Below are positions 684 through 60,940 of a stretch of 64,000 bases of DNA, piece by piece (position 1 is the stretch's first letter; every line of letters begins with the position of its first letter). The stretch comes from Armatimonadota bacterium (lineage in GTDB: Bacteria; Armatimonadota; Hebobacteria; CAIYQO01), in assembly GCA_029553475.1 (NCBI GenBank), contig JAKPKV010000077.1, positions 6,082-70,081 on the forward strand, written 5' to 3'. A program made the translations under genes and the position numbers. Under the pieces are notes generated by a model that was not told the origin of the DNA, made no database searches, and saw only the letters and a program-made list of their open reading frames with translations.

Positions 684-1883
684 ATGTTGGCCAACCGGAT
701 GCTGGCGCTGGCGTGCATCTTCACCCTGGCGGCGGCGGCGTGGATGTACCTGGGGCGCACGATCGTGGCGCGCACGCAGCAGACGTATACGAACATCAAC
801 TCGCGGGTGGAGGGATTGTGCGGGGCGCCGATCACCCAGCGGTCGCCGGTGGTGACGGATGCGGAGAACGCCCCCCTTGACCTGCGCAGCAGCGTCGTCA
901 CCGCGGACCTGGAGCTGGAATACCGGCGCAAGGGGCTGCTCTGGTTCCCGGTCTACACGGTGGATTTCGACGGCACCTATACGGTGCGGAACAACGCGGC
1001 GAAGGCGCGGCCGCTGACGGTGCGCGTGCCCTTCCCGGCAGAGAAGGGGAGCCTGGACAATTTCGCGTTCACGGTGAACGGCAACGGCGACTGGGAAACG
1101 GGGCCGGATCACGCGCGGATCACCGTGCCGGTGGACGCGGGGCAGACGGCGACCATCGCCGTGCAGTGCAAGACGCGCGGGCTGCGCACCTGGCGCTACG
1201 CCTTCGACGAGAGCGTGCAGCACGTGCGCGACTTCGCGCTCACCGTCACCACGGACACCCCAGCGATTGATTTCCCCGCCGACACGATTGCGCCGACGCG
1301 GCGCGAGGCGCGGTCCTTCACCTGGGAATACCGCAACCGGCTCTCCGGCTTCCAGATCGGCATCGCCATGCCGGAGCGGCTGAATCCGGGCGACGTGGCG
1401 GCGCGCATCGCCTTCTTCGCGCCGCTGGGGCTGCTCTTTTTCGCCATCGTGCTGGGCACCTCGGCGCTCATCCTGCGGGTGAACCTGCACCCGATGCATA
1501 TCCTCTTCCTGGCGGCGGGCTTTTTCGCCTTCCACCTGCTGTTCACCTACCTGGTGGACCACGTCAGCGTCTTCCCGTCGTTCCTCATCGCCTCCGCGGT
1601 CTCGCTGCTGCTGGTGGGGAATTACCTGCGACTGGTGGCCGGCGGGCGTTTCGCGCTGCTGCCCGGCGCCCTCGCGCAGCTCATCTACCTGGTGCTGTTT
1701 TCGTACGCCTTCTTCTTCAAGGGGTATACGGGGCTGACGATCACCATCGGCGCGGTCATCACCCTCGGCGTGCTGATGCAGCTCACCGGGCGCATGGACT
1801 GGGACGCCGCCTTCGCCCGCGGCACCGGCGCGAAGCCGCCGGTCGCCCCGCCGCCAGTGGTGGGCGGCGGCGAGGCGACGTAG
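684..1883 (+). CDS. Inner membrane CreD-like protein
   Basis: AGGAGG RBS before ATG 684. N-terminal TM, soluble domain, then about 6 C-terminal TM helices ('LHPMHILFLAAGFFAFHLLFTYL'). Confidence 0.7.
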   Translation: MLANRMLALACIFTLAAAAWMYLGRTIVARTQQTYTNINSRVEGLCGAPITQRSPVVTDAENAPLDLRSSVVTADLELEYRRKGLLWFPVYTVDFDGTYTVRNNAAKARPLTVRVPFPAEKGSLDNFAFTVNGNGDWETGPDHARITVPVDAGQTATIAVQCKTRGLRTWRYAFDESVQHVRDFALTVTTDTPAIDFPADTIAPTRREARSFTWEYRNRLSGFQIGIAMPERLNPGDVAARIAFFAPLGLLFFAIVLGTSALILRVNLHPMHILFLAAGFFAFHLLFTYLVDHVSVFPSFLIASAVSLLLVGNYLRLVAGGRFALLPGALAQLIYLVLFSYAFFFKGYTGLTITIGAVITLGVLMQLTGRMDWDAAFARGTGAKPPVAPPPVVGGGEAT

Positions 1884-1932
1884 CCCGGATGCGCGCGGCA
1901 GCGGTATTTTCCCGCGATGTGCGCGTGCCGCG

Positions 1933-1959
1933 GCAGGAGATTCGCCGGTCAGGGTGAAT
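1933..1959 (+). promoter_or_regulatory. SigH-like promoter GCAGGA-N17-GAAT upstream of the DPS-like gene
   Basis: One instance of a motif recurring before about 14 genes in the window (see findings). Confidence 0.55.
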
Positions 1960-2026
1960 GAGGGATGTGTGGCGACGCGATCCGTCGCTCCGCCGCGAAA
2001 CACCGCGCAAAGAGAGGAGCACACAC

Positions 2027-2524
2027 ATGGGAACACGTGGACGCGCGATCGTCGGCCTGCCGATCGAGACGCTGCTGACGGAATTGAACAAGGCTTTTGC
2101 CGATGAATGGCTGGCCTACTACCAGTATTGGCTGGGCGCGAAGGTGGCGAAAGGCCCGATGAAGGAAGCGGTCATCGCCGAGCTCACCCAGCACGCGCTG
2201 GACGAGCTGCGCCACGCGGAGATGGTGGCGCAGCGCATCCTCCAGCTCGGCGGCACGCCGGTCACTTCCCCCGCCGAGTGGTTCACCGTCACGCACTGCG
2301 GCTACGACGCGCCCACCGACCCTTACGTGCGCGTCCTCGTCGAGCAGAATATCACCGGCGAGCAGTGCGCCATCTCCGTCTACAAGAGCATCCTCGAGCT
2401 GACCCTGGGCAAGGATGAGGTGACCTACAACATGGCGCTGCAGATCCTCAGCGACGAAGTGGAGCATGAGGAAGACCTGCAGGCGCTGGCGGAAGATCTG
2501 GAGCTGATGCTCAGCCGGGCCTGA
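2027..2524 (+). CDS. DPS-like / bacterioferritin-related ferritin-like protein
   Basis: GAGGAG RBS. 'AFADEWLAYYQYW', 'DELRHA', 'GEQCAI' and 'DEVEHE' di-iron four-helix motifs. Confidence 0.85.
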   Translation: MGTRGRAIVGLPIETLLTELNKAFADEWLAYYQYWLGAKVAKGPMKEAVIAELTQHALDELRHAEMVAQRILQLGGTPVTSPAEWFTVTHCGYDAPTDPYVRVLVEQNITGEQCAISVYKSILELTLGKDEVTYNMALQILSDEVEHEEDLQALAEDLELMLSRA

Positions 2525-2536
2525 CGCGACAGGCCG

Positions 2537-3709
2537 TCACCCGCGCCCATGCTCCCGGTAATAGGCGAACCCTTCGATGAGCGTGCGCAGATTGTCCAAC
2601 GGCACGCCGGGCGCGATGGAGCTGCTGCAGCCGAGCATGAAACCGACCTTCGGCCCATGCGCGACCAGCCAGTCCAGCTCGCGCTTCACGTCGGCGGGGG
2701 TGCCGTGGGGCAGGGTGCGGGTGACGGAGACGCCGCCGATGATGAAGAGCGGGCCGCCGTCGCGCGTCGTCATCCGGCAGATGGCCGCGTAATCCATGCT
2801 ATCTTCGTACTGGAATCCCTGAAAGCCGCCGAGGCCGCACTCCAGCAGGCGCGGCACCATCTGCATCAGGTTGCCGTCGCAGTGCCAGATGAGGCGGATG
2901 CCGGCGTCGAGGAAGGGCTGGATGGCGCGGGCGAAGTGCGGGAACCACCGCGCGTCGAGGGTCCTCACGTCCACCAGCGTGCCGCGCGAGTCCGCCATGT
3001 CGTGGTCCAGCCGCAGCAGGCGCGGCAGCCCGCCCTCGATGATGGCGCGCGCGCCGAGGCGGTTGAACACCTCCGCGGCGTCGGCGTGCAGTGTGAAGCC
3101 GCGCTCGATCACCTCCGGGTAGAGCGCGTAGGCCATGAAGTAATTGGCGTAGCCGTAGTGGCCGTAGAGGAAGCCGGGGAAGGTGAAAAAGCCGCCGTAG
3201 GGCCCTTTCAGCATGTTCCGGCCAAAGAGCCGCTGCACCGCCACCTCGCCGGCGATGAGGTCATGCACGTGCGCGTCGGCGTTCGCCTCCAGCTCGCGCC
3301 GCCACCGCTCCCAGTGCGGAAAGAGCACGCGCTCCATGTGCGCGACGACGGCCTCCGGCGAGTCTATCACCATCCCGTCGCGCACGATTTCCTCCGCGCC
3401 GGTGGTCGCCCCCCGCGCGGCGCCGCCATCGTACCCCTGATCGCGCATGCTCAGTGGATTGTCCGGTATCCACTGGTCAATGAAGCACACCCCGGCGGCG
3501 AGGGAGAACTCGCGATACACCCGCGCCGGCTCCGCGGGATAACTCCCCGGCGGGTTGCCGGACAGCGCTTCCAGGTGCGACCACTCCATGTCATTGAGCA
3601 CCCAGGCCGGGATGCCCCGCGTCGGCCGCATGGCGATGGTGTCCAGCGCCAGTTGCGCGTTCGCCTCCCACTGACCGGCAAAGGCGTGAACATCGCGCGC
3701 GGTCGTCAT
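2537..3709 (-). CDS. Uroporphyrinogen decarboxylase-family (URO-D/MtaA-like) protein
   Basis: 'WHCDGN', 'GGVSVTRTLPHGTPADV' and 'LGCSSSIAPGVPLDNL' C-terminal motifs. Confidence 0.75.
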   Translation of the reverse strand: MTTARDVHAFAGQWEANAQLALDTIAMRPTRGIPAWVLNDMEWSHLEALSGNPPGSYPAEPARVYREFSLAAGVCFIDQWIPDNPLSMRDQGYDGGAARGATTGAEEIVRDGMVIDSPEAVVAHMERVLFPHWERWRRELEANADAHVHDLIAGEVAVQRLFGRNMLKGPYGGFFTFPGFLYGHYGYANYFMAYALYPEVIERGFTLHADAAEVFNRLGARAIIEGGLPRLLRLDHDMADSRGTLVDVRTLDARWFPHFARAIQPFLDAGIRLIWHCDGNLMQMVPRLLECGLGGFQGFQYEDSMDYAAICRMTTRDGGPLFIIGGVSVTRTLPHGTPADVKRELDWLVAHGPKVGFMLGCSSSIAPGVPLDNLRTLIEGFAYYREHGRG

Positions 3710-3733
3710 GCGAATCTCCCGGGCGGCGCAGCC

Positions 3734-4885
<1,152 letters not shown>

Positions 4886-10860: not shown

Positions 10861-10894
10861 CGCGGATGATTGAAGAATGGGCTGGAAGGATATT

Positions 10895-10995
10895 CGTTCG
10901 TAGTCGCGCCGCAGCCGCAGCAAGGCGCGTCCGGATAGGCAATCCGGTGTAGAAATGCGACGCGCCTTGCTGCGGCTGCGGCGCGACTACGAACG
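10895..10995. repeat. REPIN (left): perfect 37-bp inverted arms containing GTAG, with a 27-bp spacer
   Basis: cgttcGTAGtcgcgccgcagccgcagcaaggcgcgtc at 10895-10931 and its reverse complement at 10959-10995. Confidence 0.95.
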
Positions 10996-11041
10996 ATGGA
11001 GTTTCCATACTGATCCGAAGAAGAAACACAGGAGGTGCAGC

Positions 11042-11635
11042 ATGTATAGCTACCGCAAGATGTCACCGGAGGAGAAGGTTGAAGCGCTGAAGTATCGCCA
11101 CCTGATGGGCTTTCCCCTGCATGAGCCGCCCCATATTGAACACGACAATCCCATGTATCTGATTACCGCGGCGACGTATGAGCACCGAAAAATTCTCACG
11201 CCGGAAGCGCGACGAGTCTGGCTTGGGCGAAAACTATTCGAACATCTTACATCCATGCGAGACTGCCGTGTGTATGCCTGGGTGATTCTCCTCAACCATT
11301 ATCATTTGCTCCTGCGCGCTTCATTATCTGCCCTCCGCATAGCACTTGGAAAAGTGCATAACGCGGCATCATCGTCATGGAATCGTGAGGATGATGCCGT
11401 CGGACGCCGGGTTTGGTATCGTTTCGCTGATCGTGCCATTCGGAATGAGCGCCATTTCTGGGCAACGGTCAATTATCTTCATGCAAATCCCGTGCGGCAC
11501 GGACTTGTTGCCGCCTGTGACGCCTGGCGATGCAGCAGCGTCCACCTCTACCTTGAAGAGCATGGTGAAGCCGTCATGTTGGAACTGATGCGCGCCTACC
11601 CGACACTGGATTACGGGAAAGGTTGGGACATCTGA
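11042..11635 (+). mobile_element. REP-associated tyrosine transposase (RAYT, HUH/Y1 family)
   Basis: GGAGG RBS. 'YLITAAT', HUH motif 'LLNHYHLL' and catalytic 'NYLHANPVRHGL...W..SS'. Lower GC than neighbours and flanked by REPINs. Confidence 0.92.
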
Positions 11636-11654
11636 ACCGGAAACGAGAGTCATT

Positions 11655-11754
11655 CGTTCGTAGTCGCGCCGCAGCCGCAGCAAGGCGCGTCGGATTTGCA
11701 CACCGGTTTGCCTATCCGGACGCGCCTTGCTGCGGCTGCGGCGCGACTACGAAC
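11655..11754. repeat. REPIN (right): same arms as the left REPIN, spacer in inverted orientation
   Basis: Arms at 11655-11691 and 11719-11754. The reverse complement of the spacer matches the left spacer at 23/27. Confidence 0.95.
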
Positions 11755-18173: not shown

Positions 18174-19484
18174 TCACACCCGCCCCTCGCGCTTCACCGC
18201 CAGGTAGCGGTTCACCACGGCGACGGCGAGGTCGCTGGGGGCGGCGTCCACGGTGAGGATGCCGCGGCGGTGGAGGGTGGCGAGGGCGAGCTGGCGGTCC
18301 TCCATCACCGAGACGGCCACCGCCTGCTGGTAGAGGCCGGTCTGGTTGGCGGGCATGCCGGTGACGATGCCGCGCAGCTCGTAGTCGCTCAGCGCCACGC
18401 AGAGCACCAGGTGCTGCGGGTGGAGCAGCGCCAGGCTGTCCATGAGCCGCTTGGAGGAGTCGGGGTCAATGAGATCGGTGAAGATGATGATGAGCGAGCG
18501 CTTGCGCACGTGGTGCGCCAGGTGGGTGAAGGCACCGCGGTAATCCGGCTCCACCTGCCGCGGCTGCAGCGGGTAGAGCTGGTCCAGCACCAGCGGCAGT
18601 TGGCCGGCGCCCTTGCCCGGCGGCATGAACGCGGCGATGGTATCGGCAAACGCCATCACCCCCACGCGGTCCTGAGACTGTCCCGCCACGTAGGTGAGCA
18701 GCACGGCGGCGTTGATGGCGTGGTCCAGCTTCGTCATGTAGTCCAGGTGGCTGGCCATCGCGCGCCCCAGGTCCAGCACGATCATGATCTGCTGGCTGCG
18801 CTCGATGTCGTATTCGCGCGTGACCAGGTTGCCGCGGCGGGCGCTGGCCTTCCAGTCCACCCGGCGCAGCTCGTCGTCCGGCAGATAGTCGCGCAGCGAC
18901 TCGAACTCCATCCCCTGCCCGCGCAGGCGCATGGCGCGCAGGCCCATCTGCCGGGTGCGCTGCTGGCGGGTGAGGAGGTGCTGCTGCTTCGTCTGCTGGA
19001 TGTTCGGGTAGACGCGCATGGTATCGCCGTGCGCGTAGACGTATTGCCCCACCCACAGCCCCAGCGGCGTCTTCACGCGCACGGTGAGCGGCCCGAAGGG
19101 GTAGGCGCCGCGCTGCAGCGGGGTGAGGTGATACGAGGCGGTGAGCTGGCCGAACGGCGGCACCGTGCCCGCGGCCTGCGCGCGGTCGGCCTCCGCCTGG
19201 TCGGGGGTGGCGTCGCGCAGCGCCAGCCGGAAGGGGAAGGCGGTGGGGTTCTCCACCACCAGCGTCACCAGGTTCGGCGCGCCCAGCGAGAGGATCTCCT
19301 CGTGCTCGCGCCGCGCGGTGAGCGCTTCGGCCTGCCGCAGCAGGAACAGGTCCGTCACCAGCAGCAGCGCCAGCAGGCCGTCTACTCCGATGCCGAGCCA
19401 GAGCAGCACCGGCCACACCGGCGCCGCCAGCAGGCACAGCCCGCCGACCGCCATCCAGACCAACGCCAGCACGCTCGGACGCAT
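18174..19484 (-). CDS. DUF58 domain protein (vWA-like, MoxR-associated)
   Basis: 'GMEFESLRDYLPDDELRRVDWKASAR' and 'IIFTDL'. Confidence 0.88.
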   Translation of the reverse strand: MRPSVLALVWMAVGGLCLLAAPVWPVLLWLGIGVDGLLALLLVTDLFLLRQAEALTARREHEEILSLGAPNLVTLVVENPTAFPFRLALRDATPDQAEADRAQAAGTVPPFGQLTASYHLTPLQRGAYPFGPLTVRVKTPLGLWVGQYVYAHGDTMRVYPNIQQTKQQHLLTRQQRTRQMGLRAMRLRGQGMEFESLRDYLPDDELRRVDWKASARRGNLVTREYDIERSQQIMIVLDLGRAMASHLDYMTKLDHAINAAVLLTYVAGQSQDRVGVMAFADTIAAFMPPGKGAGQLPLVLDQLYPLQPRQVEPDYRGAFTHLAHHVRKRSLIIIFTDLIDPDSSKRLMDSLALLHPQHLVLCVALSDYELRGIVTGMPANQTGLYQQAVAVSVMEDRQLALATLHRRGILTVDAAPSDLAVAVVNRYLAVKREGRV

Positions 19485-19557
19485 CGGGTCTCCTCCCCGT
19501 ACCAGATTTCTTAGTCATTCCGCGCCGATGGCGAAGTTCCTTGTTGCGCGCGCGTGC

Positions 19558-19764
19558 GGGTGTCCGCAAAGCTTGTGCGCTTCCTTTTCGACCGGCGCTC
19601 ACCTCTCCCCCCGCCCCCCTCCCCTATATGGGGAGGGGGAGTGCGTGGCCATGCGACGACGGGCTGTCGTTTCGATCCGGTTCCCCCTCCCCGTCCGTGC
19701 AGGGGGAAAGGTGAGCGCCGCAGGGGGAAGCATCAGTGCGGTCTCACAGTTTTTGCATGCACCC
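19558..19764. repeat. Long imperfect foldback element with conserved outer shell, copy 1 (copy 2 at 60667-60814)
   Basis: Shared 'agcttgtgcgcttcctt(t)tcgaccggcgctc' and 'gagcgccgc..ggggaagcatcagtgcggtctcaca'; the interior hairpin varies. Confidence 0.88.
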
Positions 19765-20036
19765 GCGCGTGCGGGTGTCCGCACACTATGTGAGCTATTG
19801 TGCCCGTCCGATCGCCTTCTGGACAATGCGGGCGACGTCGCGGGGTGACAGGTCCGGCGGACGCGGGACGGCAACGTGCCGAGAGCCTGGCGCGAGAACC
19901 GGGGCGTGCGCCGGCGGCACCCGCGTCATCCACCGTCGGCTGTCCGAACCTTGATGGGAGAGATTTACATGATGATTGGCGGGGTGTCGAAGTATGGGGC
20001 GTTCGTGTCGAACACGGGCTGAAGGCTTCCACCCCG

Positions 20037-20734: not shown

Positions 20735-21460
20735 ATGGGTCTTTTCACGCGGCTCTTCGGCGGCGGACGGCATCGTCAGGCGGTGGCGGAGTGCCTGGCG
20801 GCGTTTCCCTTTGCGGTGGAGGCGGCGCCGGGCGCGGCGGCGCTCGCGCGCATGGCGGAGCTGCGCAGCCCCGATTTCATCCCCATCCTGCTGGGCGACG
20901 CAGAGGATCTGCTCGCTCACCACGCGCTGCTCGCCAAGGATCCCTACACCATGCGCGACCTCCTCGGCCGCGTACAGTCCATCGGCATGCCGGAATGGTG
21001 GCTCACCGCGCGCGCGCACGCGCTGGAAGACCGCTTCGCGGAGGTGCTGGGCGCGTGGCCGGAGGAGCCGGCGCCGCTGGATACCGTGCAGGCCCTCTAC
21101 GACGCCGACACCGGCGAGCCGCGCGCGGAAGTCTTCATCGCCCGCCTGCCGCTCGCGCGGAGCGCCGACGCTCCCGCGCTGCTGCGCTTCGGCGGGTGGA
21201 ACGGCAGCCCCTTCCCGGAGGAGCACGTCGCCATCGCCCGCGCCTGGCGGGAAGAATTCGGCGCCGAGATCATCGCCGTCACCGCCAGGACGCTGGAATT
21301 CACCGTCGCCCGCCCCCCCGCCACCCGCGACGCCGCCGACGCGCTCGCCCTCACCCACTTCGCTTACTGCCCGGACATCGTCAACACAGGCGTCGGCACC
21401 CTCAGCAATCTCGCCGCCCGGTTGCTGAACGCGCCGAATTGGTGCTTCCGGTGGGAGTGA
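20735..21460 (+). CDS. DUF4253 domain protein
   Basis: 'GGWNGSP', 'W.EEFGAE', 'LEFTVARPP', 'AYCPDIV' and terminal 'W.F.W'. Confidence 0.82.
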   Translation: MGLFTRLFGGGRHRQAVAECLAAFPFAVEAAPGAAALARMAELRSPDFIPILLGDAEDLLAHHALLAKDPYTMRDLLGRVQSIGMPEWWLTARAHALEDRFAEVLGAWPEEPAPLDTVQALYDADTGEPRAEVFIARLPLARSADAPALLRFGGWNGSPFPEEHVAIARAWREEFGAEIIAVTARTLEFTVARPPATRDAADALALTHFAYCPDIVNTGVGTLSNLAARLLNAPNWCFRWE

Positions 21461-21477
21461 CCGGGGGATGAGGGCGG

Positions 21478-22013
21478 CCCTCACCCCCCGGCCCCCTCTC
21501 CCAGCGGGAGAGGGGGAGTAACGGAGAGGAGGAGCGAATGGATGCTGAGCATTATCGCGGTGGGATGTATTGTGCGGGATTGCTGGCGCGTATGCGGGAG
21601 TTGCGGGCGGCGCAGACACCGGCGGAAGCGTTTTTTTGGGACATGGTGCGCGACCGGCGGTTTTTTGGATTGAAATTTCGGCGCCAGCACCAAATGGGGC
21701 TGTATATCGTAGATTTCTACTGCCATGAGCGAAAGCTCGTGGCCGAGTTGGACGGCGCCGGCCATGATGAACCATCACAGCACACGTATGACATAAATCG
21801 CGACGATTATCTGCATTCCTTTGGCTGCACATTTTCCGCATCCCGAACGACTTCCTCCTTGCCAGCCCCGACCGGGTCTTCCGCGATCTCGCCGCCGTCC
21901 TCCATCTTCCCGATTATCCCTGGGAGCGGGAACGGAGGTGAAGCATCAACATCGGTTCCCGTCTTCCCGCCACTCCCCCTCTCCCGCTGGGAGAGGGGGC
22001 CGGGGGGTGAGGG
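21478..22013. mobile_element. DUF559 nuclease cassette bounded by perfect 42-bp inverted hairpin repeats
   Basis: ccctcaccccccggccccctctcccagcgggagagggggagt at 21478-21519 and its exact reverse complement at 21972-22013. Confidence 0.75.
21538..21941 (+). pseudogene. DUF559 (Vsr-like PD-(D/E)XK) endonuclease with a 1-nt frameshift near 21830
   Basis: 'RELRAAQTPAE..FW...RDRRF.GLKFRRQH.MG.YIVDFYC....LVAELDG..H......D..RD.YL..FG' continues in the -1 frame as 'IFRIPNDFLLASPDRVFRDL..' to TGA at 21939-21941. Confidence 0.85.
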
Positions 22014-22074
22014 TCGCGTTCGGAAAAGGTGATCCGCCACCCACACAGAATATCCGCACGTGAGGTATGCTCCC

Positions 22075-23709
22075 ATGCCGATACGTCTGCTGTGCCTCAT
22101 GCTGCTGTTCGGCGCGCTGCTCCCCGGCCTCGCCGAGGAGCTCCGGTATTATTACACCGGCACCGTCAACGGCGCCCTCGCCGTGCAGATGGAGTTGTCG
22201 TTCGACGGCGACCGGGTAGAGGGGCATTATTTCTACGAGACGGTGGGCGCGGACCTCCGCCTGGACGGCAACCGCACGGGGACGGCGCTGGCGATGGAGG
22301 AGCTGGTAGACGGGAAGGTGACCGGCGGCTTCACCGGCAGGCTCTCCGCCGACCTGCGCGCGATCACCGGCTCTTGGGTCAATCCCGACGGCACGCGCAA
22401 GCTGCCGTTCACCGCGACGGCGGTGGCGCAGTATAAACCCGTTCTCGTGAAGAGGCCGGGGTACGAGCTGACCGGCCGCTACCCCGTCTTCCTCGGCGAG
22501 GGGGCGGCGCTGCAGGCGCTGACCAAGCAGCTCGGCTGGCGGGTGGCGGGGGCGCAGGCGGCTTTCCTGAAGGAGACGGTGCGCGCGCCGGACGTGGAGT
22601 ACGTCGCCGATTTCACGCAGGAATACAGCATCGGCATCGCCTATTATCACCCCGAACTCATCAGCCTGCTCGTCCATGAATACGTGGACGCCGGCGGCGC
22701 CCACCCGAATCTGCGCTACGCCTCCGCGAATTATGCAATCGCCGGCGAGCAGCCGCGGCTGCTCGGCCTGCGCGACCTGCTGCGCGGCGATAACCCGCAG
22801 GCGACGCTCTTCCCGCCGGTGAAGGCCGACCTGGACCGCCAGGCGACGGCGCGCGGCACGGCGGTGTGGGAGCTCTTCACCGCCGATGACCTGTCCGTGT
22901 ACACCCTGCGGCCGGCCGGCTTCACCTTCTACTTCGCGCCCTACGTGGCCGGGCCGTATGCCGCCGGCCCGTACCAGGTGGCGCTGCCCTACCACGCGGT
23001 GATGACCGCCATCAACTGGGGCGGCCCGCTGCCCCTCTTCCTGCGGCTGGACAGCCCGGGCGCGAAGCCCGGCGTGGACCCGGTGACCGGCCTGGGGGCG
23101 GCGGAGGCGGCGAAGCTGGGCATGGACGCCTTCGCCGAACGCTACCTCCAGGCGGTGGGCTTCACCGGCGAGAACGCCACCGCCTGGATGGTACGCCAGG
23201 CGCTGGACACCTACACCGCGCTCAAGCACGCCTGGAATGATCGCGAGGCGAAGGCGCTGCCGGCGGCGAGGCACACCCAATATACCCGCGTCCGCGCGGT
23301 GATGGCGCGCCTGTTGGCACACCGCTACGCCCTCGAATGGCTCACCTGCGGCGGCACCATCCTCTACGACTTCGCCGCCGATGACGCCGCCGGGCAGGCC
23401 GATACCCTCGGCGCGCTCATTGACGCGCTGCGCCCGCCGGACGCCAAAGACCCCGCCGCCCGCGCGCTGGCGCGTGCCGACCTGGCCGCCGCGCAGGCCG
23501 CCGTCGCCGCCCGCCCGCGGACGGTAGCGGCGGAGGAGTGCCTGGGCGATCCGCAAGACTACGCCGTCCACCTCAGCGCCCTCACCCGCGCCGTCGCCGA
23601 TGCCCACGCCCTCGCCCAAGAACTCCCCGACCGCGCCGCCGCCCTCCTCGCCGCCGTCACGCTGGAGATGGCGAAGCCGGTGGCTATTGGGCCGGATGAG
23701 GAGGAATGA
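22075..23709 (+). CDS. Secreted protein with a DUF4163/DUF3298 (PdaC/RsiV-like) region
   Basis: Signal peptide, 'Y.DAGGAHPN' and 'FYFAPYVAGPYAAG...V.LPY'. Confidence 0.75.
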   Translation: MPIRLLCLMLLFGALLPGLAEELRYYYTGTVNGALAVQMELSFDGDRVEGHYFYETVGADLRLDGNRTGTALAMEELVDGKVTGGFTGRLSADLRAITGSWVNPDGTRKLPFTATAVAQYKPVLVKRPGYELTGRYPVFLGEGAALQALTKQLGWRVAGAQAAFLKETVRAPDVEYVADFTQEYSIGIAYYHPELISLLVHEYVDAGGAHPNLRYASANYAIAGEQPRLLGLRDLLRGDNPQATLFPPVKADLDRQATARGTAVWELFTADDLSVYTLRPAGFTFYFAPYVAGPYAAGPYQVALPYHAVMTAINWGGPLPLFLRLDSPGAKPGVDPVTGLGAAEAAKLGMDAFAERYLQAVGFTGENATAWMVRQALDTYTALKHAWNDREAKALPAARHTQYTRVRAVMARLLAHRYALEWLTCGGTILYDFAADDAAGQADTLGALIDALRPPDAKDPAARALARADLAAAQAAVAARPRTVAAEECLGDPQDYAVHLSALTRAVADAHALAQELPDRAAALLAAVTLEMAKPVAIGPDEEE

Positions 23710-41472: not shown

Positions 41473-42014
41473 CATTCCCCCGCCGCCAGGATGGCCAGCC
41501 CCGATGGCGTCGCAAAAGAATGCGGCCATCGGGACGCCGAGCCAGGCCGGAAGCCCCCAGCAGGCCCGCGCCGAGACTTTTTGTACAGTTTCTCAAAAGA
41601 TCCATGAGACGATTTCGGTGCATTGTTTGCGATATATTCCGTGTTTTTCCATCTATTTACGTATGAGATAAGAAAACGAAATTGCTCCCCGACAGGCCCC
41701 CTGACCTTCCGCGCCGCGACCCCCGCGCCCCCTGCCCCGCGCGCCTCCTCGTCGGCCGTACACTTCCGGTCGAAAATCACCCTTGTCCACAATAGGAAGC
41801 CACCCCTCCGCGTTCCACACTCGTCCCCTCTCCCGGCCAGGATGGCGGCGGGAGGAGGGGTGAGACCCCGGCAGCGTCGGAGCAGACGGCAACGCCCCTG
41901 CCCCTGCTCGCTGAACGGGAAATGCGGCGTATTGCAGACAGATGTGGTCGAAAATACCCGGCGCCGGCGCGGCATTGGCACAACGCGCGGCCGGGCTACC
42001 GCCCGGTCTGGCCA

Positions 42015-56453: not shown

Positions 56454-56629
56454 GAACACCCCTCGTTTCAGCTCGTTTCAGCTAAACGTCCCATGTTATT
56501 CGATACGGGAGGACGCGTATCCTTGTCGGCGTGGGGCCGTCTACCCAAGCCTCCCTCCCGCTCCCCTCTCCCGGAGGTCGAGGGGCGTGCGCGGCTATGC
56601 GGGAACCGCGGCGCGCCGGCGTCTCGCCC

Positions 56630-60583: not shown

Positions 60584-60666
60584 GGGAGACCTCCGGGATG
60601 TGAAACGGTGCCGGAGAAGACACTTCGGCGCCACGGGCCGTTGCACCTGCCGGCGCATCCGCGCGC

Positions 60667-60814
60667 GGGTGCCCGCACAGCTTGTGCGCTTCCTTTCGAC
60701 CGGCGCTCCCCGCTCCCCCCGGCCCCCTCTCCGCTCAGGGGAGGGGGCCGGGGGGAGCGGGGAGCGCCGCGAGGGGAAGCATCAGTGCGGTCTCACAAGT
60801 TTTTGCGTGCACCC
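60667..60814. repeat. Long imperfect foldback element, copy 2
   Basis: Outer shell shared with 19558-19764. The inner hairpin has 18 bp identical to the DUF559 terminal repeat. Confidence 0.88.
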
Positions 60815-60940
60815 ATCCGTGCGCGAGTATGACGAGCGCGCCGCGTCTCCTTGCCCTTCCCCCCCGACATCGCATACAATGAACGGCGGTCCCGCGGCAG
60901 CCGCGGGCTGTTGAACGCTTCCGAACAAAGGGTGACGGCT

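Follow-up and report, generated by a model that had tools for sequence, protein, structure and literature searches.

A DUF559 nuclease gene bracketed by inverted BoxC/PIT/TM units in an Armatimonadota genome, and DUF559 as a candidate partner of the repeat

In the window, the 64,000-nt stretch of DNA from an Armatimonadota bacterium that was analysed here, a DUF559 gene of 404 bp (21538..21941, + strand) with a 1-nt frameshift is enclosed by an exact 42-bp inverted repeat, an arrangement that the original prediction had described and that alignment and Pfam bear out. The exact core at 21478-21519 is the reverse complement of 21972-22013 over 42 nt, and the letters shared at the cassette joint in contigs from sequencing runs also number 42. 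Beyond this core the inverted repeat extends to 51-nt arms (21474-21524 and 21967-22017) with 94% complementarity. Each arm is a single unit in which a 3-nt spacer separates a C-rich box from an 11-bp hairpin, and in either arm the hairpin reads CCCCCTCTCCC-AGC-GGGAGAGGGGG. As DNA the 11-bp arm hairpin folds at -14.6 to -15 kcal/mol, and the 25-mer is found at two window sites only, the cassette arms, with 0.00 expected from 100 shuffles.

The left unit (21474..21517, + strand) scored 48.6 bits (E 3.5e-9) and the right unit (21971..22017, - strand), its inverted copy, scored 48.9 bits (E 3e-9) with covariance model R1. In the left unit the C-box CCCTCACCCC(CC) at 21478-21489 faces away from the gene and is followed, after the 3-nt spacer, by the 11-bp hairpin at 21492-21516 (-14.6 kcal/mol). 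The right unit presents its hairpin at 21975-21999, then the spacer and a G-box, GGGGGGTGAGGG, that also faces away from the gene. The loose ends of other genomic copies coincide with the ends of the left unit, at 21474 and 21515-21517, and homology to the congeneric genome G001, whose contig begins 106 nt before that point, resumes just beyond the right unit at about 22018-22021. Abutting the left unit is a lone G-box-like stretch, CCGGGGGATGAGG (21461..21473, no strand assigned), which lies directly 3' of the stop codon of a DUF4253 gene and has no hairpin partner; judged by its letters, it may be the leftover of an earlier unit.

None of the other ORFs in the cassette matched a family. No target-site duplication is visible at its ends and the profile search found no transposase family within it, as the original prediction had noted, which sets the cassette apart from a transposon with its MITEs; nor does the sequence reveal a cut site. 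Neither G001 nor G002 provided an empty orthologous site for the window cassette; between the same two genes, G002 carries a different insert, 640 bp long, that includes another small ORF.

The assignment to DUF559 is strong over the part of the protein that can be read in one frame. ORF 21538-22032 matched PF04480 with 89.4 bits against a cut-off of 20.6 (E 1.8e-25), over profile positions 5-84 of 109 only, and NCBIfam NF007294 with 58.4 bits. The N-terminal 97 codons lie in frame 0 and the C-terminal 36 codons (IFRIPNDF...) in the next frame, ending at the TGA at 21939-21941, and comparison with an intact relative in genome G005 places the loss of one base near 21824-21832. That relative is the nearest to the window cassette, and the two have hairpins and gene in common in different neighbourhoods. 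At the frameshift site, contigs from three activated-sludge runs, among which the source sample may itself be included, carry identical letters with no indel. The window gene has no intact reading frame and, being frameshifted, is therefore now a relic; any DUF559 activity of the host would have to be that of the intact paralog on contig C2, to which the window protein is 51% identical.

Up to the frameshift, the window copy retains the residues that do not vary among 44 relatives (VDFYCH, E-x-DG, H, D and R). These include the D of VDF, E-x-D and H, which are invariant in 44 sequences, the window fragment among them, and which by analogy with Vsr are predicted to be catalytic. A structure model of the intact paralog (pLDDT 85) matched 3HRL with a TM score of 0.87, the I-Bth0305I catalytic domain (3R3P) with a TM score of 0.74 and Vsr (1CW0) with a probability of 0.97, so that the Vsr-type fold is assigned on the paralog rather than on the window copy. 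The DUF559 proteins considered here are bare nuclease domains of about 105-127 aa, and free-standing genes encode 127 aa and about 133 aa.

Could the inverted repeats simply serve the expression of the gene between them, as an invertible switch, an insulator or a structure at the mRNA end? One contig from run X2 connects 21519 with 21971 on opposite strands, which gives the interior the reverse orientation with respect to the left flank, and DUF559 is enriched (odds ratio 14.3) among predicted programmed-inversion targets in the portion of PMC9881135 consulted. The flipped contig may, however, be an assembly artefact, because the exact 42-nt inverted repeat exceeds the assembler's word, and the contigs of X1 and X3 end at that place. 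There is no invertase nearby, and neither a + strand sigma-70-like promoter for the DUF559 gene nor a T-run terminator was found. PIT elements have no promoter or terminator activity according to work cited in the accessible part of PMC4666352. An Rfam scan of 21200-22300 returned only microRNA look-alikes, all far under gathering scores, with no RNA family that fits, and RNA run X4 covered the neighbouring genes only, at low depth. A role confined to DUF559 expression would also leave about 200 gene-less copies unexplained, and we regard it as highly improbable.

The palindrome family, which had been put forward as undescribed, is the BoxC/PIT/TM_ECO intrastrand-triplex repeat, and has already been reported. 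Holder et al. give the TM consensus as CCCTCNCCC-N3-6-GGGNGAGGG-N3-GGGNGAGGG (PMC4666352, in the section available), and both window units conform to all three blocks, their G strand reading CCCCCTCTCCC-GCT-GGGAGAGGGGG-CCG-GGGGGTGAGGG. In the third block the purine arm is mirrored, which would permit G.G-C, A.A-T and T.A-T triplets, and all 11 of 11 positions are triplet-compatible in both window units, each with a 3-nt spacer. Among 132 units of the family, 83 have at most one incompatible triplet, compared with 22% (maximum 30.5%) when boxes are permuted, and 81 have a 3-nt spacer. The units studied here and the published repeats have the same order of parts: a pyrimidine block is joined through a short loop to a purine block, and this through a 3-nt loop (CCG or TTA) to its purine mirror block. 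Both are multi-copy, intergenic and present in many phyla. They differ in that the published repeats are treated as orphans with no associated gene, whereas units here bracket a nuclease gene and also occur as convergent doublets and symmetric palindromes.

Several properties of the repeat are described in the parts of PMC4666352 at our disposal. BoxC/PIT/TM repeats have been recognised in E. coli since the 1990s, through the papers of Bachellier and Hoyne cited there, and TM repeats occur in hundreds of genomes of many phyla. Triplex formation was reported in vitro for TM_ECO and was not supported in vivo, and Holder et al. (2015) state that they found no remnants of a transposase or integrase. 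The words 'ycjD' and 'endonuclease' are absent from PMC4666352.

Alignment of the family required care with register. When 108 units were aligned with MAFFT alone, their stems fell out of register and RNAalifold recovered only 5 pairs; loop-anchored gapless alignments were used instead, of which A2 had 6 shifted rows. Alignment A3 retains 59 of 74 loop-3 units, the 6 shifted rows having been removed together with 9 units whose boxes were odd or whose spacers were long. Since units were selected as hairpins, the paired fraction on A3 is circular, and weight is placed only on double changes and on the mirror test. Unpaired cells on A3 cluster at one pair (7/59). A conserved T:G mismatch in the stem was considered as a Vsr-type substrate and dropped, G-U pairs being rare on A3.

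Units without a gene also lie in the window. A gene-less convergent doublet at 19599..19722 (+ strand) combines a unit at 19599-19643 (R1 39.8 bits, E 3e-7) with a degenerate, inverted partner of 11 bits that ends in GGTGAGCGCC, inside a larger repeat of about 200 bp in common with 60600-60860. At 60707..60763 (no strand assigned) is a symmetric single unit with C-box, hairpin and G-box, which scored 22.7 and 20.2 bits on the two strands and contains a 32-bp perfect palindrome (fold -50.7 kcal/mol, z -9.8); on alignment A8 it is a short form of the 19.6-kb doublet, from which it differs by a 59-bp stretch. A weak degenerate unit lies at 56546..56590 (+ strand; R1 25.2 bits, E 6e-4). These three account for three of the four gene-less hairpins initially proposed, while the fourth, at 41808-41864, was not significant (R1 13.3 bits, E 0.29).

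In the host genome a pattern search located about 212 distinct unit loci, and R1 matched 135 of 150 candidates scored. Since R1 was trained on units adjoining DUF559 genes, diverged gene-less copies may be under-counted. Gene-less doublets are convergent in 41 cases and divergent in none. Subtypes B (89 loci) and C (28 loci) are the commonest and flank neither resident DUF559 gene, and subtype A, that of the window gene, has 13 loci. The window cassette is the only matched-type convergent pair 150-3000 bp apart in this genome. Units adjoining large paralog families, namely oxidoreductases and prepilin-like genes, recur in the genome.

The pairing of DUF559 genes with units extends well beyond the window. 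Both of the DUF559 genes in the host genome adjoin units. A unit lies within 300 bp at 20 of 23 DUF559 loci among 40 relatives and at 64 of 80 loci in other phyla; within 200 bp, one is present at 77 of 103 loci from several phyla, on both sides at 39 of them, and inverted repeats that bracket the gene exceed shuffles at 58 of 100 loci. As expected at the outset, such flanks are strongly enriched at DUF559 homologs. Near the gene, unit density is 5.5 per kb at 0-100 bp and about 0.14-0.15 per kb at 450-600 bp, compared with 0.046 genome-wide. Layouts vary and include >G<, <G> and ><G>< (G being the gene), the commonest single one being >G< at 9 of 61 loci. The pairing reaches from Chloroflexota to E. 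coli, and across phyla the motif is itself conserved; in E. coli K-12, which has 23 TM_ECO units, one lies 160 bp downstream of ycjD.

Across genomes, the presence of the repeat correlates with that of the gene, as anticipated, and does so imperfectly. In 101 Acinetobacter genomes, units occur in 50 of 59 DUF559-positive and in 15 of 42 DUF559-negative genomes, these being raw counts that ignore kinship, with many of the genomes compared being incomplete MAGs. Additionally, 37 of 150 units listed in Acinetobacter lie within 200 bp of a DUF559 match, where 0.04 are expected. Units accompany no detectable DUF559 in G010 (75 hits, 77% complete) and G006 (17 hits, 96% complete), and G040 has 111 unit hits with a weak DUF559-like match only. 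Conversely, at the thresholds used, no unit was found in 4 of 12 relatives with strong DUF559 matches or in 9 of 59 DUF559-positive Acinetobacter genomes. Overall, these comparisons show that gene and units travel together across phyla.

This pattern could arise passively, if TM units gather at recombination-prone or recently acquired spots where DUF559 is a small, dispensable bystander. TM loci are more rearranged than control sites according to Holder et al. (PMC4666352, available sections), units recur beside the paralog families mentioned above, and one orthologous locus has three different states in three congeners. Bystanders would not, however, be expected to show what is seen here: both of only two host DUF559 copies adjoin units, unit density falls off within about 300 bp of the gene, paired flanking units are usually of the same subtype in inverted order, and the pairing spans phyla. 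Passive co-location is in our judgement quite unlikely.

A second alternative follows from the fold of the protein. DUF559 could be an ordinary mismatch-repair enzyme of the Vsr type that fixes T:G mismatches arising from cytosine methylation, a role that has been suggested for Caulobacter VsrA, with the repeats as unrelated neighbours. The Vsr match of the paralog model is consistent with this, as is the functional tie of Caulobacter VsrA, which has a DUF559 domain, to the unlinked m5C methyltransferase ScmA (PMC12907096, as far as the text consulted extends). Vsr, I-Bth0305I, 3HRL and VsrA have the fold and the conserved acidic and histidine residues in common with the proteins studied here. 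In contrast to Vsr, I-Bth0305I and VsrA, the DUF559 genes described here come with no intron or intein, no extra DNA-binding domain and no linked methyltransferase, and among Vsr-fold nucleases the flanking repeat is their distinguishing trait. Repair alone would leave unexplained the approximately 30- to 1000-fold enrichment of one particular repeat at the two ends of the gene in several phyla, as well as the inverted, cassette-like boundaries and the in-frame cassettes within other genes. We therefore consider this explanation very unlikely.

Comparison of orthologous sites indicates that the elements move. At one such site G002 has a 148-bp doublet that G001 lacks, with AGCGC at both junctions, which is also part of its terminal repeat. 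An MmeI-family gene contains a cassette, a singlet and a doublet as three inserts, all in frame, and is otherwise colinear with the solved MmeI. Filled and empty sites, one of the checks proposed at the outset, were seen in relatives for gene-less units and for one gene-bearing cassette. The results show that gain and loss affect single units, doublets and entire cassettes as discrete blocks, and that units also multiply where the gene is missing, in the form of singlets, symmetric palindromes and convergent doublets.

These observations also bear on the possibility that DUF559 is a selfish gene of the homing type, which would cut in or beside existing TM units or doublets and be copied in by repair. 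Units would then be landing sites, multiplied by replication slippage or host recombination. The catalytic domain of I-Bth0305I is the second-closest solved fold, the commonest layout puts the gene at the position of a doublet's spacer, units are abundant in genomes without DUF559, and one cassette sits in frame within the MmeI-family gene, all of which accord with homing. At many loci, however, whole doublets stand to the left and to the right of the gene (><G><) rather than the gene inside a doublet, the proteins lack the DNA-binding domain of I-Bth0305I, and no pair of doublet alleles with and without the gene was found. Of what marks an EDxHD homing endonuclease, the fold is present, whereas the intron or intein and the extra DNA-binding region are not. 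On balance we find homing unlikely.

A partnership between enzyme and repeat would resemble known systems, one of which is present in the window. About 10 kb upstream of the cassette, ORF 10955-11635 matched NCBIfam REP_Tyr_transpos with 81.8 bits (cut-off 80), having been missed by a Pfam Y1_Tnp search of the genome, and this RAYT gene lies between two GTAG-type REPIN doublets of a repeat family different from the TM units. The RAYT-REPIN locus claimed for this position is therefore real, and the cassette does mirror its layout. In both systems one or a few small enzyme genes lie within inverted hairpin repeats, and singlets and convergent doublets that lack the gene are numerous at other sites. 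They differ in the enzyme, the cassette encoding a PD-(D/E)XK nuclease of the Vsr fold rather than an HUH Y1 transposase, and in the repeat: TM units start with GCGRCCCTCACC and carry a third, mirror block, whereas the GTAG head is confined to the RAYT's own repeats. Furthermore, none of the 10 Y1-transposase matches in the host genome is listed as adjoining a TM unit or lying within 1 kb of one.

The second parallel, which the original prediction had also drawn and which holds, is with ssnA. As described in the accessible portion of PMC11893778, NTS-ssnA-NTS is likewise a small single-domain nuclease gene with oriented hairpin repeats (NTS/SRM) at its flanks, further copies of which are dispersed through the genome. 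In that source, ssnA homologs have a repeat on at least one side in 31% of cases and on both sides in 14%, compared with 75% and 38% for DUF559. Ssn nucleases cleave ssDNA next to the hairpin repeats found at the flanks of their own genes, with a demonstrated effect on transformation (PMC11893778, same portion), whereas the role of DUF559 is predicted from sequence. The nucleases also differ, GIY-YIG in Ssn and DUF559 only, by Pfam and NCBIfam, in the cassette, as do the repeats.

From these analogies we infer that DUF559 may be a structure-specific partner nuclease of TM units, comparable to RAYT for REP or SsnA for NTS. The module, which is widespread and has three parts, consists of a small DUF559 gene bracketed by inverted BoxC/PIT/TM units, each with its C-box, 3-nt spacer and GC hairpin. 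DUF559 would recognise the folded unit, as hairpin or triplex, on single-stranded or extruded DNA, with the oriented box as a handle, and would then nick next to the unit. Such nicks could initiate new copies of units and cassettes in the manner of REP-RAYT, or alternatively lead to the trimming of incoming or recombining single strands, as in NTS-SsnA. We see about an even chance that the 544-bp stretch at 21474-22017 is a decayed module of this kind, nuclease plus inverted TM units, with DUF559 as the partner enzyme of the units. It is a more tentative and rather doubtful proposal that DUF559 proteins of the YIVDFYCH subfamily, including YcjD, are the first enzymes dedicated to a natural intrastrand-triplex/hairpin repeat and form, with BoxC/PIT units, a third class of replicator made of a small nuclease and a folded repeat, beside REP-RAYT and NTS-Ssn.

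In the openly accessible papers searched, no link between DUF559 and BoxC/PIT/TM was found. Because the pairing extends from Chloroflexota to E. coli, our results point to DUF559 as a candidate partner enzyme for the BoxC repeat. The pairing would also explain why DUF559 genes, which are often at the ends of MAG contigs, are found there and why they are flagged as inversion targets.

We know of no function, origin or partner protein for BoxC/PIT/TM repeats, and to our knowledge no substrate has been assigned to DUF559, a nuclease family that is very widespread and for which a structure has been solved. If repeat and enzyme are partners, E. coli K-12 and its YcjD offer a way into both questions, and the few repeat-plus-enzyme systems known to shape bacterial genomes would gain a PD-(D/E)XK member. 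A structure-specific DNA-cutting tool might follow, as with the Ssn family. If the proposed replicator class is real, it spreads across phyla and can settle even in frame in essential or defence genes.

We conclude that the link between DUF559 genes and the repeat flanking the cassette gene is strong, and that this repeat is the known BoxC/PIT/TM unit. The arms of the cassette (window 21474-22017) are inverted repeats of 51 nt at 21474-21524 and 21967-22017, with 94% complementarity and an exact 42-nt core. Each carries one 11-bp hairpin, CCCCCTCTCCC-AGC-GGGAGAGGGGG, that folds at about -15 kcal/mol (as DNA); the hairpin 25-mer occurs at only two sites in the window, the two arms (0.00 expected in shuffles). 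Each arm is one oriented unit consisting of a C-box (CCCTCACCCC), a 3-nt spacer and the hairpin, which on the opposite strand reads hairpin, CCG, then GGGGGGTGAGGG. Neither a target duplication nor a transposase was found at the cassette by sequence reading and family search, and the initial observation of a gene between inverted hairpin repeats lacking both is real. A sequence search likewise found no plus-strand sigma-70 match and no T-run terminator there. The cassette is flanked by a DUF4253 gene and a DUF3298/PdaC-like gene.

Directly after the stop codon of the DUF4253 gene, a lone G-box-like stretch (21461-21473) abuts the left unit, forms a short box-box palindrome with it and may be the footprint of an earlier unit. 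The purine strand of the unit (GGGAGAGGGGG-CC-GGGGGGTGAGGG; 21975-22013) has four G-runs with short loops and therefore also fits a G-quadruplex pattern; the structure predicted from this sequence would compete with the hairpin or triplex. One contig from sequencing run X2 joins 21519 to 21971 on opposite strands (left flank to right inner end), so the cassette interior is inverted there, which reflects either genuine inversion between the 42-nt arms or a misassembly at the exact inverted repeat.

The single gene between the arms begins at 21538 (ATG). Its match to Pfam DUF559 (E 1.8e-25) covers only profile positions 5-84 of 109, and the remainder of the domain lies in another frame, to a TGA at 21939-21941. 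One base is missing near 21824-21832 relative to an intact relative in another genome, G005. Given the split over two frames and the one-base gap, the cassette gene is therefore a pseudogene unless rescued by frameshifting. Contigs of three activated-sludge runs, which may include the source sample, have the same letters and no indel in this region. The fragment retains the residues invariant in 44 relatives (E31, W35, F48, Q51, YIVDFYCH at 57-64, E71, D73, G74, H77, D84 and R87). The host genome (5.27 Mb, 67% G+C, 194 contigs) has two DUF559 genes, the window copy and an intact paralog on contig C2 (127 aa, 51% identical to the window copy) with a gene-less hairpin pair about 60 nt downstream. 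By protein similarity, the nearest DUF559 loci are in Anaerolineae and other Chloroflexota MAGs. The sole solved relative found by sequence is 3HRL, labelled 'endonuclease-like protein' (E 1.7e-18), and the structure model of the paralog (pLDDT 85) was matched to 3HRL (TM 0.87), the homing endonuclease I-Bth0305I (0.74) and Vsr (prob 0.97).

The original prediction presented a candidate undescribed system, but its palindrome family proved to be a described one. In the accessible text of Holder et al. (2015; PMC4666352), the TM_ECO consensus is CCCTCNCCC-N3-6-GGGNGAGGG-N3-GGGNGAGGG, with second loops of the TTA and CCG types, and TM_ECO is the BoxC or PIT repeat, present in 23 copies in E. coli MG1655. 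That text reports no mobility function near TM motifs and names neither ycjD nor an endonuclease. We tested the mirror rule that defines this repeat, which requires a third block compatible with G.G-C, A.A-T or T.A-T triplets on the hairpin. In each of the two window units, 11/11 triplets were compatible. Among 132 units from 103 loci, 53 were perfect and 83 had at most one clash, the latter compared with 22% (maximum 30.5%, 200 permutations) when boxes were permuted between loci. The spacer was 3 nt in 81/132 units. Furthermore, a gapless alignment of 59 units had 54 stem cells changed on both sides versus 8.7 in shuffles; the paired fraction of this alignment is circular because the units were selected as hairpins.

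The association of units with DUF559 was measured at 23 loci from 40 same-phylum relatives and 80 from named genomes, including Chloroflexota, Cyanobacteria, Bacteroidota, Acinetobacter, Binatota, Verrucomicrobiota, Myxococcota and others. A box-plus-hairpin unit lay within 300 bp of the gene at 84/103 loci (20/23 in relatives, 64/80 in named genomes) and within 200 bp at 77/103, on both sides in 39, so that the expected repeat flanks are indeed enriched. The best upstream/downstream inverted flank match exceeded shuffled controls at 58/100 loci, three of the 103 having flanks too short for this test. Unit density per kb fell from 5.5 (0-100 bp) to 2.85 (100-200) and 0.83 (200-300), then to 0.14 at 450-600 bp and about 0.2 beyond; the average over the host genome was 0.046.

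Of 101 Acinetobacter genomes that form an independent set, 59 have DUF559 at E <= 1e-10. The covariance model of the unit, R1, found units (E <= 1e-5) in 50/59 DUF559-positive genomes versus 15/42 others (odds ratio 10; Fisher's p 6e-7, a value that ignores kinship). Among the matches listed, 37/150 units were within 200 bp of a DUF559 match, compared with about 0.04 expected. For 41 Chloroflexota genomes, units at E <= 1e-4 were present in 8/12 with a strong DUF559 match (E < 1e-15) versus 7/29 others, or in 11/18 versus 4/23 when any match at E <= 0.001 was counted; three genus g2 genomes score zero units partly because the g2 stem type is absent from the R1 seed, and the DUF559 genes of these three genomes have flanking units by eye and weak R1 matches. 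In E. coli K-12, a TM_ECO unit lies 160 bp downstream of ycjD, which is annotated DUF559, and is the only significant R1 match (33 bits) in the 14 kb examined. The predicted correlation between units and gene presence held across genomes, though imperfectly; unit-rich genomes with no detectable DUF559 include G010 (75 matches) and G006 (17).

At the E. coli locus (NC_000913; L119 7200-7440), a degenerate unit overlaps the ycjD stop codon, and a near-duplicate of the last ~45 bp of ycjD lies between it and the TM_ECO unit; the 3' end of the gene was apparently duplicated in an earlier rearrangement. A truncated DUF559 pseudogene (profile 28-108/109) with internal TGA and TAA stops recurs in six Acinetobacter genomes (G059, G070, G104, G109, G122 and G133). 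A unit begins 3 nt from the start of the profile match, as if it had replaced the first 27 codons.

Empty orthologous sites were sought, and in relatives they exist for gene-less units and for a gene-bearing cassette. Downstream of one orthologous DUF559 gene, a 148-bp doublet of two convergent units, with AGCGC at both junctions, is present in G002 and absent in G001. At this locus (L004, L005), three congeneric genomes each differ: G002 has a unit upstream of DUF559 and the doublet downstream, G001 has DUF559 with just a lone G-box upstream, and the host genome, G000 (C156:55938-56132), has a half unit only, with no DUF559 in the 232 bp before the contig end. The closest relative of the window cassette, in G005, has the hairpins and the gene in common with it but neither flank, and homology to G001 restarts directly after the right-hand G-box of the cassette. 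Additionally, a Pseudanabaenaceae MAG has an MmeI-family type IIL restriction-modification gene of 1159 open codons (L121, G042:C19:114400-119800, ORF 933-4412), which is colinear with solved MmeI (5HR4) apart from three in-frame inserts. One is a 615-bp DUF559 cassette that carries four units and lies within the methyltransferase domain, immediately before the NPPF motif; the other two are a single unit and a gene-less doublet of 114 bp. These differences are natural filled and empty sites and show turnover, not its agent. A second DUF559 match in this MAG (G042:C16) lies within a 606-aa open frame.

Gene-less copies are numerous in the host genome, with at least 135 R1 matches (150 of about 2855 candidates scored) and 245 pattern detections at 212 distinct loci, by stem type B 89, C 28, A (that of the window) 13, D 4 and other 78. 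There were 41 convergent pairs of 80-130 bp and no divergent ones, and the window cassette is the only same-subtype convergent pair enclosing 150-3000 bp. Of the gene-less relatives proposed for the window, a doublet (19599-19722), a symmetric box-hairpin-box palindrome (60707-60763) and a weak unit (56546-56590) were recovered; the match near 41825 was not significant. Positions 19480-19800 and 60600-60860 of the window are copies of one larger, ~200-bp repeat that has outer inverted ends of its own. A TM doublet sits in one copy and a single symmetric palindrome (32-bp stem, -50.7 kcal/mol) in the other, so another repeat family has TM units nested inside it. The copies differ by a 59-bp stretch that converts the doublet into the symmetric single unit.

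The cassette shares its layout with RAYT and its REP/REPIN elements and with the Ssn family. The RAYT locus noted in the window was confirmed at 10955-11635 (NCBIfam REP_Tyr_transpos 81.8 bits; Pfam Y1_Tnp only 13.3 bits), between its own two REPIN doublets (10894-11754), which have a GTAG head and perfect arms of 36-38 nt; the gene had escaped the Pfam search of the whole genome. None of the ten Y1-transposase matches of the host genome lay within 1 kb of a unit, among units listed. According to the accessible text of PMC11893778, SsnA binds the hairpin repeats that border its gene and cleaves the adjacent ssDNA; the repeat flanks 31% of SsnA homologs on one side or more and 14% on both.

Several observations stand against an enzymatic link between DUF559 and the units. 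The window gene copy is broken, and the commonest subtypes in the host genome, B and C, flank neither resident DUF559 gene. Besides G010 and G006, G040 has 111 unit matches and a weak DUF559 match only, and 15 of the 42 DUF559-negative Acinetobacter genomes have units. Layouts vary (>G< 9, <G 6, ><G 5, <G>< 4, G being the gene and the arrows oriented units, at 61 loci within the best 150 R1 matches), and the accessible text of Holder et al. (PMC4666352) reports that formation of a stable triplex in vivo was not supported. Many surveyed genomes are incomplete MAGs, where repeat-flanked genes tend toward contig ends.

The repeat and the DUF559 family are each already known. Our literature search, with subscription journals and supplements outside it, found no publication on their pairing, and the link is apparently unpublished. 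The accessible text of PMC9881135 places DUF559 among families enriched in predicted inversions, which fits flanking inverted repeats. The data show the proximity and orientation of gene and units, their conservation across phyla and their turnover in blocks. We propose that DUF559 would recognise the folded unit, taking its direction from the box, and would nick beside it; candidate outcomes for TM units are RAYT-like copying, homing of the gene into units, or Ssn-like trimming of recombining DNA. This enzymatic link is a well-founded hypothesis that is open to testing in E. coli.
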